NCBI RefSeq assembly: GCF_048403405.1
Contig: NZ_CP183129.1
Reading direction: 5' to 3' (one strand)
DNA from: Escherichia coli
Lineage (GTDB): Bacteria; Pseudomonadota; Gammaproteobacteria; Enterobacterales; Enterobacteriaceae
Length of the DNA stretch: 64,000 nucleotides
This document shows, piece by piece, positions 36,867 through 40,909 of the stretch. Under the pieces are notes generated by a model. The model saw only the letters and a program-made list of their open reading frames with translations, searched no databases and was not told where the DNA came from. Position 1 is the first letter of the stretch. Every line of letters starts with the position of its first letter. The translations under genes and the position numbers were made by a program.

Positions 36867-37143
36867 GTTTTCTCTTCCGCACAAGGTCAGGATTATTCTA
36901 AAAATGCGCCGTTTGCAGGTGAATCGACGCTTAGTCTCAGTATAAGGAAAAGCGCAGCGGACGGGCGAGTAGATTGCGCAACATGCGAGCATGATCCAGA
37001 GATTTCTGAAGCGGCAAAAGGATGTTCCATGTACATGACGCGCGGCTTGCGGTAAATTGTTGGCAAATTTTCCGGCGTAGCCCAAAACGCGCTGTCGTCA
37101 AGTCGTTAAGGGCGTGCCCTTCATCATCCGATCTGGAGTCAAA

Positions 37144-39135
37144 ATGTCCTCACGTAAAGAGCTTGCCAATGCTATTCGTGCGCTGAGCATGGACGCAGTA
37201 CAGAAAGCCAAATCCGGTCACCCGGGTGCCCCTATGGGTATGGCTGACATTGCCGAAGTCCTGTGGCGTGATTTCCTGAAACACAACCCGCAGAATCCGT
37301 CCTGGGCTGACCGTGACCGCTTCGTGCTGTCCAACGGTCACGGCTCCATGCTGATCTACAGCCTGCTGCACCTCACCGGTTACGATCTGCCGATGGAAGA
37401 ACTGAAAAACTTCCGTCAGCTGCACTCTAAAACTCCGGGCCACCCGGAAGTGGGTTACACCGCTGGTGTGGAAACCACTACAGGTCCGCTGGGTCAGGGT
37501 ATTGCCAATGCAGTCGGTATGGCGATTGCAGAAAAAACGCTGGCGGCGCAGTTTAACCGTCCGGGCCACGACATCGTCGACCACTACACCTACGCCTTCA
37601 TGGGCGACGGCTGCATGATGGAAGGCATCTCTCACGAAGTTTGCTCTCTGGCGGGTACGCTGAAGCTGGGTAAACTGATTGCGTTCTACGATGACAACGG
37701 TATTTCTATCGATGGTCACGTTGAAGGCTGGTTCACCGACGACACCGCAATGCGTTTCGAAGCCTACGGCTGGCACGTTATTCGCGACATCGACGGTCAT
37801 GACGCAGCATCCATCAAACGCGCAGTAGAAGAAGCGCGCGCAGTGACCGACAAACCGTCCCTGCTGATGTGCAAAACCATCATCGGTTTCGGTTCCCCGA
37901 ACAAAGCCGGTACGCACGACTCCCACGGTGCGCCGCTGGGCGACGCTGAAATCGCCCTGACCCGCGAACAGCTGGGCTGGAAATATGCACCGTTCGAAAT
38001 CCCGTCTGAAATCTATGCTCAGTGGGATGCGAAAGAAGCAGGCCAGGCGAAAGAATCCGCATGGAACGAGAAATTCGCTGCTTACGCGAAAGCTTATCCG
38101 CAGGAAGCCGCTGAATTTACCCGCCGTATGAAAGGCGAAATGCCGTCTGACTTCGACGCCAAAGCGAAAGAGTTCATCGCTAAACTGCAGGCTAATCCGG
38201 CGAAAATCGCCAGCCGTAAAGCGTCTCAGAATGCTATCGAAGCTTTCGGTCCGCTGTTGCCGGAATTCCTCGGCGGCTCTGCTGACCTGGCACCGTCTAA
38301 CCTGACCCTGTGGTCTGGTTCTAAAGCAATCAACGAAGATGCTGCGGGTAACTACATCCACTACGGTGTTCGCGAGTTCGGTATGACCGCGATTGCTAAC
38401 GGTATCTCCCTGCACGGTGGTTTCCTGCCGTACACCTCCACCTTCCTGATGTTCGTGGAATACGCACGTAACGCCGTACGTATGGCTGCGCTGATGAAAC
38501 AGCGTCAGGTGATGGTTTACACCCACGACTCCATCGGTCTGGGCGAAGATGGCCCGACTCACCAGCCAGTAGAGCAGGTCGCTTCACTGCGCGTGACCCC
38601 GAACATGTCCACATGGCGTCCGTGTGACCAGGTTGAATCCGCGGTCGCGTGGAAATACGGCGTTGAGCGTCAGGACGGCCCGACTGCGCTTATCCTCTCC
38701 CGTCAGAACCTGGCGCAGCAGGAGCGTACTGAAGAGCAGCTGGCAAACATCGCGCGCGGTGGTTATGTGCTGAAAGACTGTGCCGGTCAGCCGGAACTGA
38801 TCTTCATCGCGACCGGTTCGGAAGTTGAACTGGCGGTTGCCGCCTACGAAAAACTGACAGCCGAAGGCGTGAAGGCGCGCGTGGTTTCCATGCCGTCTAC
38901 CGACGCGTTCGACAAGCAGGATGCGGCTTACCGTGAATCCGTCCTGCCGAAAGCGGTTACTGCACGCGTTGCGGTAGAAGCGGGTATTGCTGACTACTGG
39001 TACAAGTATGTTGGCCTGAACGGTGCTATCGTCGGCATGACCACCTTCGGTGAATCTGCTCCGGCAGAGCAACTGTTTGAAGAGTTTGGTTTCACCGTTG
39101 ACAACGTTGTTGCGAAAGCCAAAGCGCTGCTGTAA
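37144..39135 (+). CDS. tktA: Transketolase 1
   Basis: 663-aa product starting [20 protein letters not shown]; recognised as TktA. Confidence 0.96.
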
Positions 39136-39156
39136 TCAGTAAGACGTTTTGTGAGA

Positions 39157-39182
39157 AGGGCCGCGAAAGCGGCCCTTTTTTT
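39157..39182. terminator. Intrinsic terminator shared by tktA and the convergent SPFH gene
   Basis: Hairpin agggccgc-gaaa-gcggccct followed by TTTTTT. Confidence 0.8.
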
Positions 39183-40089
39183 ACTTAGTAGAGATAAACG
39201 GAACTGTACTGCCGGGGATCATGGTATCGGGTAGCTTACCGTCCCAACGCTCAGCAGTGGTGAGGGCAACAAGTCCGGGATTATCCCGCAGAGCTTCACC
39301 GCGCAGGCGGATAGCTTCTGCTTCAGCCGCACTTTTTAAACGAATAGTTTCAGCCTCTGCCGCGCCTCTTACGCGAATGGTCTCAGCTTCTGCTTTGGCC
39401 GCTGCAAGTTTACTGTCTGCTTCTGCCTGGGCCTGAGTTACCGCTATTTGCGCCTGGATTTTCTCTGTTTCCAGATTTTGCTTACGCGTGGCAATTGCAA
39501 CTTCCGCTTTCATTCGGTCTTCAATCGACTTTTCATAAGCGTCAGAAAAGTCAATATTTTCAATCTGGACCCCGTCAATCACCACCGGACCAACAACGGC
39601 TTTACGCATAGCATTTTGCAGATCCTGAACCAATTTTGTACGATCCTGTACGGCGCTGATGGCGGTATATTGGCCGAAAACGTTCTCCAGTTGAGTTGGC
39701 AACTGACGGACAATCAGACGATCTTTTAATGCTTCAATGGTGTTGTAGGTGGTATAAACCGCGCCTGCTTCTGAAGGTTTAATGTGGAAGCTGACTGATA
39801 CTGTCATTTGTGCCGGTTGCTGGTCGCGGCTGTAGGCCTGTAATCCTTGATAAACCACAGCCTGATTACGCGTGGAAATTTTCTCCACGCTTTCCATAAA
39901 AGGGATCTTAAAACCCAGACCCGGCTCGGCAACTTTTACGATTTTTCCGTAGCGCAGCAAAATGCCGCGTTCACCTTCATTAACGGTGTAATACGAGAGA
40001 AATGGCAGCACAACCACGGCAAGCACGCCAATGACGATAGCAATAGATTTTTGTGGGCGAAATGAGGTTATTGAAACAGGTGCTTTCAT
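39181..40089 (-). CDS. SPFH/band-7 (HflC-like) membrane protein with C-terminal Ala/Glu-rich repeats
   Basis: 302-aa; N-terminal TM helix then YTVNEGERGILLRYGKIV…EPGLGFKIPF, typical of an SPFH domain; not one of the K-12 SPFH proteins I recall (HflK, HflC, QmcA, YqiK). Confidence 0.8.
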   Translation of the reverse strand: MKAPVSITSFRPQKSIAIVIGVLAVVVLPFLSYYTVNEGERGILLRYGKIVKVAEPGLGFKIPFMESVEKISTRNQAVVYQGLQAYSRDQQPAQMTVSVSFHIKPSEAGAVYTTYNTIEALKDRLIVRQLPTQLENVFGQYTAISAVQDRTKLVQDLQNAMRKAVVGPVVIDGVQIENIDFSDAYEKSIEDRMKAEVAIATRKQNLETEKIQAQIAVTQAQAEADSKLAAAKAEAETIRVRGAAEAETIRLKSAAEAEAIRLRGEALRDNPGLVALTTAERWDGKLPDTMIPGSTVPFISTK

Positions 40090-40465
40090 GACAATCTTCC
40101 TTGAGTAAAGTGTGGGAATATGTCACATGAGGTGAGGAGAAAACAGCCGACAGGTGAGAATTCAGAATCTATAAAGGGGTATAGCGAAAAAACATTGCAT
40201 TAAAAAGTATGCTTTCGGACATTCAATAAATAAATAGAGACATGCATCACAAATACAATAACAAACAAAATGTTGATTTTGTGATAAACATAACAAATAC
40301 AAAGTTGACTTTGTAAGTATTTATTTCATGTTGTTGTTATTTAAAGTTTTATTATTTTTGTTCATGGGGTTTTTCTTCTCGCGTACCCAATTGCTTTCAT
40401 TAAACCGCACGAGTATTTTATTTTTACCGCCGGACGGTACCCTAAAAATAAAATAAGGATAATTT

Positions 40466-40909
40466 ATGCGGCTTAGTGATTATTTTCCAGAATCATCAAT
40501 CTCAGTTATACATTCAGCAAAAGATTGGCAGGAAGCTATCGATTTCTCGATGGCATCATTGCTGGATAAAAACTATATCAGCGAGAATTACATTCAGGCA
40601 ATTAAAGATTCCACCATTAACAATAGCCCTTATTATATTCTCGCGCCAGGTGTGGCAATGCCTCATGCGCGACCGGAATGTGGGGCGCTTAAAACCGGGA
40701 TGTCTTTGGCGTTACTTAAACAAGGCGTTTATTTTCCGGGGAATGACGAACCGATTAAATTACTCATCGGGCTTTCTGCTGCCGATGCCGATTCGCACAT
40801 TGGCGCTATTCAGGCGTTAAGTGAATTACTGTGCGAAGAAGAAATACTCGAACAACTCTTAACAGCATCATCAGAAAAACAATTAGCGGACATTATCAGC
40901 CGCGGATAA
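40466..40909 (+). CDS. cmtB: Cryptic mannitol-type PTS enzyme IIA
   Basis: 147-aa ORF recognised as CmtB. Confidence 0.9.
   Translation: MRLSDYFPESSISVIHSAKDWQEAIDFSMASLLDKNYISENYIQAIKDSTINNSPYYILAPGVAMPHARPECGALKTGMSLALLKQGVYFPGNDEPIKLLIGLSAADADSHIGAIQALSELLCEEEILEQLLTASSEKQLADIISRG

Follow-up and report, generated by a model that had tools for sequence, protein, structure and literature searches.

SPFH proteins of known structure form cages in which CC1 makes the wall and CC2 together with the CT region makes the lid (PMC12478178, PMC12624060). In the flotillin cage the wall was described as a right-handed single-layer helical barrel, whose side-by-side helices carry a repeating A/G,E,A/G,E pattern with heptads absent and expose charged residues on both the inner and the outer face (PMC11260169). 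Escherichia coli K-12 has four SPFH proteins (PMC10434171). Here we analyzed a stretch of 64,000 nucleotides of another E. coli genome (the window; contig NZ_CP183129.1, to whose positions all coordinates refer unless another sequence is named), which encodes an SPFH protein that K-12 lacks. The gene was found in 1830 of 5426 complete E. coli genomes, meaning that about one third of the genomes of this species carry a fifth SPFH protein, and the work done on the quadruple SPFH mutant of K-12 therefore does not cover the species.

The SPFH/Band 7 gene, an accessory one, lies on the minus strand at 39181..40089 (909 bp, 302 aa, according to the ORF list, Pfam and RefSeq), convergent with tktA (37114..39135) and divergent from cmtB and cmtA. 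RefSeq gives the product of a 100% identical locus the name 'prohibitin family protein' (WP_000646927.1). Positions 39137-40387 of the window (1251 bp) are absent from MG1655, which has 234 bp of unrelated DNA in their place. The last 100 nt of tktA are 91% identical to K-12 and the cmtB side is 99.4% identical, which suggests an old recombination boundary at the 3' end of tktA. A GC-rich hairpin followed by a T run, GGGCCGC-GAAA-GCGGCCC plus T7 (39158..39182, no strand assigned), can be read from the sequence in the gap between tktA and the SPFH gene, which converge, and its T run overlaps the SPFH stop codon. A scan for consensus promoters and terminators did not list this hairpin and returned nothing useful, and an Rfam scan of 38900-40600 gave solely a sub-threshold Trp_leader match on the terminator hairpin (23 bits against 41). 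The site is longer by about 175 bp in E. coli 536 and in E. albertii (L010 1034-1252), and in strain 536 the extra DNA reads as a REP/BIME-like insert with a copy of the hairpin on either side. Of the 1842 places in E. coli genomes that match the SPFH gene, one lies on a plasmid, and a homologue at 67% identity (P0057) is annotated on a Kosakonia plasmid, so that the gene is occasionally mobile.

Concerning the family of the product, the Pfam Band_7/SPFH profile PF01145 matched residues 35-210 over profile positions 2-176 of 176, with 111.6 bits against a cut-off of 23.6 (E 5.6e-32). Matches to known proteins and structures by sequence were HflC, HflK, QmcA and prohibitins, and the N-terminus resembles that of HflC. 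The protein is not HflC by the equivalog cut-offs of TIGR01932 and NF008259 (60.5 bits against 134.4 and 53.3 against 427, respectively), nor HflK by those of TIGR01933 and NF008181 (37.4 against 159.4 and 34.6 against 660), nor FloT by the NCBIfam cut-off (17.3 against 700). In E. coli and E. albertii the flanking genes are tkt and cmtB, and in other genera tkt together with either a GH38 glycosidase gene or the gap-pgk genes; no NfeD-family neighbour was found at any of the loci examined in E. coli, E. albertii or these other genera.

The AlphaFold2 (AF2) monomer model of the 302-aa protein has a mean pLDDT of 87.5 and shows the order of parts of the cage-forming SPFH proteins, as also supported by Foldseek. 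A transmembrane helix at residues 12-32 (39994..40056, minus strand) is followed by the SPFH1/SPFH2 globular domain at residues 33-182 (39544..39993, minus strand; E33-E181 in the model, in agreement with Pfam and Foldseek), and then by CC1, one continuous alpha-helix of 87 residues spanning 183-269 (39283..39543, minus strand). Along CC1 the means of 10-residue pLDDT blocks are 89-96 for residues 181-250, 83 for 251-260 and 67 for 261-270. After an NPG break comes CC2, a short helix of residues 271-279 (39253..39279, minus strand), and finally a C-terminal tail of residues 280-302 (39184..39252, minus strand), which carries W-x-G-x-LP...P motifs and is disordered in the monomer model (pLDDT about 50); its residues W282, G284, L286, P287, P292 and P297 are invariant in 51 homologues. 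The top Foldseek matches were the full-length cage subunits HflC, erlin1/2, PHB1/2, HflK and QmcA, all with probability 1.0, and the matches also included the stomatin and flotillin cages. Since K2, R11 and K14 precede the transmembrane helix, the positive-inside rule and the HflC-like N-terminus suggest an N-in orientation, with the remainder of the protein in the periplasm. By analogy with the solved relatives, the protein would assemble into a closed cage with its CC1 helices side by side, presumably as a homo-oligomer, as it comes from a single bacterial gene.

[quoted passage not shown] Unit 0 is AEAETIRVRGA (residues 233-243, 39361..39393), unit 1 is AEAETIRLKSA (residues 244-254, 39328..39360) and unit 2 is AEAEAIRLRGE (residues 255-265, 39295..39327), all on the minus strand. 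Directly upstream, in the same 11-residue register, lies a degenerate unit with an AEA start, AEADSKLAAAK (residues 222-232, 39394..39426, minus strand), which shares 3/11 residues and 15-17/33 nucleotides with the other units. In the AF2 model the array occupies the C-terminal third of CC1, that is its lid-proximal end, right before the NPG break into CC2. On the opposite strand an antisense ORF of 71 aa, rich in S and A (39221-39436, plus strand), overlaps the repeat; we rejected it as a gene, as nothing supports it and it is a by-product of the GCN/GAN codon periodicity.

The units share 7-8 of their 11 residues with one another. As A, E, Q, K and R abound throughout the helix, we considered whether a helix of Ala/Glu/Arg-rich composition could look repetitive by chance. 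At lag 11 the best 22-residue window contains 15 identities, a value that none of 5000 shuffles of the helix region equalled at any lag from 3 to 30, and the BLOSUM62 score at lag 11 is 71, where the null scores average 20.5 and do not exceed 38. Moreover, the unit is conserved position by position in 51 homologues, with a family-wide consensus A-E-A-E/D-(A/S/T)-I-R-(L/A/V)-(R/K)-(G/A)-x. A compositional artefact therefore has practically negligible probability.

The earlier note had also proposed that such repeats are prone to slippage and could vary in copy number between strains, and had named a lack of periodicity at the DNA level as the result that would speak against this; such a tract would resemble a contingency locus or VNTR. 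The periodicity is present: DNA identity reaches 0.67 for lag 33 and 0.61 for lag 66, and stays at 0.17-0.38 for other lags. An array that is in frame and periodic at 33 bp speaks for slippage, but slippage is not supported, as the units have diverged as DNA. Pairwise, they are identical at 25, 20 and 19 of 33 nt (58-76%), and this identity is concentrated in codon positions 1 and 2 (15-19/22), with 6, 2 and 3 of 11 matches at position 3. Exact in-register matches between units reach at most 8 nt, namely GCAGAAGC (33 bp spacing) and GAAGCAGA (99 bp spacing), and Tandem Repeats Finder with a minimum score of 30 returned an 11-nt fragment at 39353-39375 but no array of period 33.

We then looked at copy number in the complete E. 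coli genomes with a probe of 139 bp (20 + 99 + 20 nt). An allele with two units would cover at most 76% of this probe as split pieces, or show about 76% identity as one gapped piece, and one with four units would split into two matching places or drop to about 81% identity. Results showed that all 1829 probe-matching genomes (1829/1829) have exactly one matching place, which covers no less than 80% of the probe at 90% identity or more, and that the full-length rows sampled all span exactly 139 nt (59/59); the single partial row is an IS1-truncated gene. Likewise, every full-length whole-gene row sampled spans 909 nt (29/29). Thus, with this probe, no copy-number variant of the units was found in 1829 complete E. 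coli genomes, and the proposed variation between strains did not hold. Neither of the two features that define a hypervariable coding repeat, near-identical DNA units and copy-number polymorphism between strains of the species, was found here. The tract is genetically stable in present-day E. coli, neither hypermutable nor phase-variable, and because the strains are equal in unit number it can serve neither as a marker for typing nor as a phase-variation switch.

An insertion has cut the gene in E. coli FDAARGOS_1259 (L011 1739-2716), where IS1A leaves only its last 74 codons, with the repeats retained; next to the IS1A lies a truncated dehydrogenase gene, and both cmtA and cmtB are missing.

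An E. coli-type protein with exactly one unit missing (P0011) is encoded on a metagenome scaffold, which taken at face value would favour slippage. We rejected it as a case of strain variation because the scaffold is unreliable: it also contains a run of N, its tkt gene is split and the SPFH domain has lost 18 bp. Other singletons, P0002, P0003, P0007 and P0008 from ENA metagenome assemblies and P0006 from the NCBI third-party annotation (TPA), likewise show odd small in-frame deletions. Together, the singleton E. coli-type proteins (P0002, P0003, P0006-P0008, P0011; L016) have deletions of 3-11 residues scattered in CC1, and from the one scaffold examined these look like assembly artefacts and not alleles.

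Unit number does change over evolutionary time. Two units, AEAETIRLKGA and AEAEAIRLRGE, are present in homologues at 57-88% identity from Klebsiella, Kluyvera, Phytobacter, Kosakonia, Mixta, Erwinia, Salmonella and Pseudomonas, and three units in E. coli, Shigella and E. albertii, with 88% DNA identity between their genes. The two-unit genes of a Kluyvera (L005) and of an enterobacterium (L002) are also convergent with tkt-loiP, and this shared synteny indicates that they are syntenic orthologues and that the Escherichia lineage has gained the third unit. Unit 2 is orthologous to the last unit of the two-unit proteins. Units 0 and 1 are each identical at 27/33 nt (counted by hand) to the single corresponding unit of the enterobacterial gene (L002), and, judged from sequence, the extra Escherichia unit would be either unit 0 or unit 1.

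A loss was found in E. albertii, where an allele of 280 aa, 98.8% identical to the three-unit E. albertii allele, lacks exactly 22 residues (66 bp) in register. Two separate assemblies contain this allele, one from NCBI and one from a Logan read set. In the three-unit E. albertii allele the lost 66 bp lie between two copies of GGCAGAAGC, a 9-nt direct repeat whose copies lie at the starts of the degenerate unit and of unit 1, and the loss is just what would be left by a rare deletion event between direct repeats of short length. The AF2 model of the 280-aa allele has a continuous but shorter helix at residues 183-247, followed by the same CC2. The claim of variable unit number thus holds between genera and for this one 66-bp deletion in E. 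albertii, and fails within E. coli. Both the differences between genera and the in-register deletion flanked by a 9-nt direct repeat are points in favour of a slippage-prone tract with strain-variable copy number; set against the 1829 E. coli genomes free of length variants, the divergence of the units as DNA and the changes at synonymous sites with the protein unchanged, they leave this explanation very improbable.

Those synonymous changes were counted over CC1 and the units only, aligned from the C-terminus, because an N-terminal indel invalidates whole-gene and SPFH-domain counts between E. coli and E. albertii. Between these species no non-synonymous codon change was seen, against 11 synonymous ones in the units and 26 over CC1; two divergent E. 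coli alleles differ in the units by 3-4 synonymous codons and no non-synonymous one. The repeats are kept by protein-level selection. We also considered a recent tandem duplication, or homogenisation of the units by gene conversion (concerted evolution), in place of an old selected array. Units 0 and 1, with 25/33 nt and 6/11 third positions in common, are somewhat closer than the other pairs, and Escherichia has one unit more than its neighbours, as a recent duplication would have it. Third positions of the other pairs, by contrast, match at the level of chance (2-3/11), the three-unit state is common to E. coli, Shigella and E. albertii in spite of the divergence of their genes noted above, and orthologous units of E. 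coli and E. albertii are identical at 29-30/33 nt while paralogous units share 19-25/33. As orthologues are closer than paralogues, the units are old and have not been homogenised, making recent duplication or concerted evolution highly improbable. The array would have arisen by old in-frame duplications, followed by purifying selection on the protein while synonymous sites were randomised.

What selection keeps can be read from the columns of the unit in the 51 homologues. Small or apolar residues occupy positions 1 (A), 3 (A), 5 (A/S), 6 (I), 8 (L/A) and 10 (G/A), and charged residues positions 2 (E), 4 (E/D), 7 (R), 9 (R/K) and 11 (K/E/A). On the helix the small and apolar residues form two opposite stripes, 1/5/8 and 3/6/10. 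By its lag-11 self-similarity and its conservation position by position in the 51 homologues, the array shows the 11-residue periodicity along a helix that defines a hendecad. The classical hendecad of right-handed coiled coils has a single hydrophobic a/d/e/h core stripe; instead, two opposite stripes of small residues are seen here, and power at 3.67 is absent with only the second harmonic present. Accordingly, the hydropathy spectrum lacks power at 3.5-3.7 and has a strong peak at 2.2, the alias of the second harmonic that a pair of opposite stripes would produce. The best period of the whole helix is about 3.63 residues per turn, nearer to 3.63 than to 3.67.

We also tried a hydropathy Fourier test of the idea that deletions of 11 residues alone keep the phase, and we do not use it as support because it proved non-discriminating. 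In the deletion simulation, losses of 2, 7, 9 and 11 residues all preserved the 2.2-2.23 peak, since the second harmonic is blind to 180-degree flips; furthermore, at exactly 2.2 the native power (57) is not above the shuffle mean, the true peak being at 2.23.

The two stripes also bear on the possibility that these E/R-rich units form an isolated single alpha-helix (an ER/K spacer), or a docking site for a partner such as a protease, and not a wall. The spacings E4-R7 (i+3) and R9-E2' (i+4) could form intrahelical salt bridges, and cages of the HflK/C type do hold a protease. An isolated charged helix, however, has no need of 6/11 positions conserved as small or apolar in two stripes, every solved SPFH cage has its wall formed by the homologous region, and the adjacent genes are tkt and cmtB, with no partner gene among them. 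We therefore regard a single helix or a docking site as improbable.

Considering all these results, the three units are quite probably the best-conserved stretch of an 11-residue structural periodicity in CC1 of an HflC/prohibitin-like SPFH membrane protein. As 11 residues make about three helical turns (about 16 A), each unit would return the same residues to the same faces of the helix. By analogy with the solved cages, stripes 1/5/8 and 3/6/10 would pack against the two neighbouring CC1 helices of a single-layer wall, and the charged positions 2, 4, 7, 9 and 11 would face the lumen and the outside as they do in flotillin, where the A/G-E-A/G-E wall has been described with inter-subunit ionic bonds of a kind that these positions could also make. 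The number of units would then set the height of the wall, by about 16 A per unit, and because 11 residues are almost exactly three turns, gain or loss of a whole unit would alter the height without rotating the faces.

We asked whether the length of the wall helix in relatives follows the same step. Among close homologues the anchor-to-anchor distance is 87 in 95 clusters, 98 in Escherichia and 76 in the 280-aa E. albertii allele; a distance of 97 (+11 -1) occurs in one unrelated lineage, which has an extra unit of independent origin. Widening the sample to 110 representatives at 36-63% identity gave main length classes spaced by 11, at 75 (13 representatives), 86 (56), 97 (18) and 108 (2), accompanied by a series offset by 7, at 79 (7), 90 (1) and 101 (4). 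Mapped on a neighbour-joining (NJ) tree, 32 of 52 inferred length steps are multiples of 11 and 10 are steps of 4, 7 or 15; this is a rough tree of the SPFH domain alone, whose errors inflate transitions between classes already 11 apart. It may be that the SPFH wall helix evolves in length by 11 residues (three turns), with a minor offset-7 series, as the only steps that keep the packing faces in register, a proposal that we make tentatively and rate slightly short of an even chance. Whole units leaving the packing faces unrotated would explain why natural length changes come in elevens.

Length change in steps of 11 is the only mildly new point of this analysis; as originally posed, the finding is of little weight, the repeats being a normal SPFH wall motif. 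In the literature collection searched, which is incomplete, we found no paper pairing SPFH proteins with 'hendecad' or '11-residue'. If the proposal is true, Escherichia offers a natural allele series around the common enterobacterial array length, with one unit more in the 302-aa protein of E. coli and E. albertii, an equal number in the closest orthologues of 288-291 aa, and one unit fewer in the 280-aa protein of E. albertii. These alleles should then build cages differing in height by about 16 A per unit, giving a ready-made ruler for how wall length sets cage geometry and subunit number. The length classes of CC1 spaced by 11, with the natural alleles of differing unit number in Escherichia and its neighbours, are a simple handle on the relation between CC1 length and cage geometry.

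Among known systems, HflC and HflK (PDB 7vhp, 7wi3) are the best matches by sequence and fold (E 1.8e-13 and 3e-17) and have the same architecture, their N-terminal transmembrane helix and first strands aligning well with the 302-aa protein. These modulators of FtsH are encoded as the hflK-hflC pair, whereas here there is a single gene that does not adjoin hflX. Lags that are multiples of 11 are the two best in HflC and in YqiK (22, then 11) and the second-best in HflK (22), none of them individually significant.

The cages of prohibitin PHB1/PHB2 and of erlin1/2, matched by Foldseek with probability 1.0, also have a CC1 wall with a CC2/CT lid. The length of CC1 differs between these families and tracks cage height, the erlin CC1 having 101 residues in a cage of about 165 A and the PHB cage measuring about 110 A. 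They differ from the 302-aa protein in being eukaryotic hetero-oligomers, at 17-20% identity, compared with a single bacterial gene here.

The closest likeness in the repeat itself is with QmcA of E. coli, known from the QmcA-YbbJ SPFH-NfeD complex (PDB 8z5g), which has a like order of transmembrane helix, SPFH domain, long helix and short helix. In its long helix we found three to four tandem 11-residue A-E-G/A-E units, of the form ILxAEGExQxx in 3-4 copies, with a lag-11 score of 74 (null maximum 38) compared with 71 here. In K-12 qmcA (L014 2857-3774) these are ILEAEGIRQAE, ILKAEGEKQSQ, ILKAEGERQSA and FLQAEARERSA, at residues 186-229. QmcA differs in other respects: the identity is 25%, it is predicted to face the cytoplasm, while the N-terminus of the 302-aa protein suggests a periplasmic location, and it has the NfeD gene ybbJ as partner, while the 302-aa protein is without an NfeD neighbour.

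Finally, the flotillin wall shares with the units of the 302-aa protein the alternating small and acidic motif, although its wall helix is 186 residues long and the FloT family match here is negligible. As a flotillin-like motif lies at the lid-proximal end of CC1 and QmcA carries an equally strong tandem, the repeat is a hallmark of the family. The three units are thus an ordinary feature of the SPFH wall helix, and not a slippage-prone variable tract.
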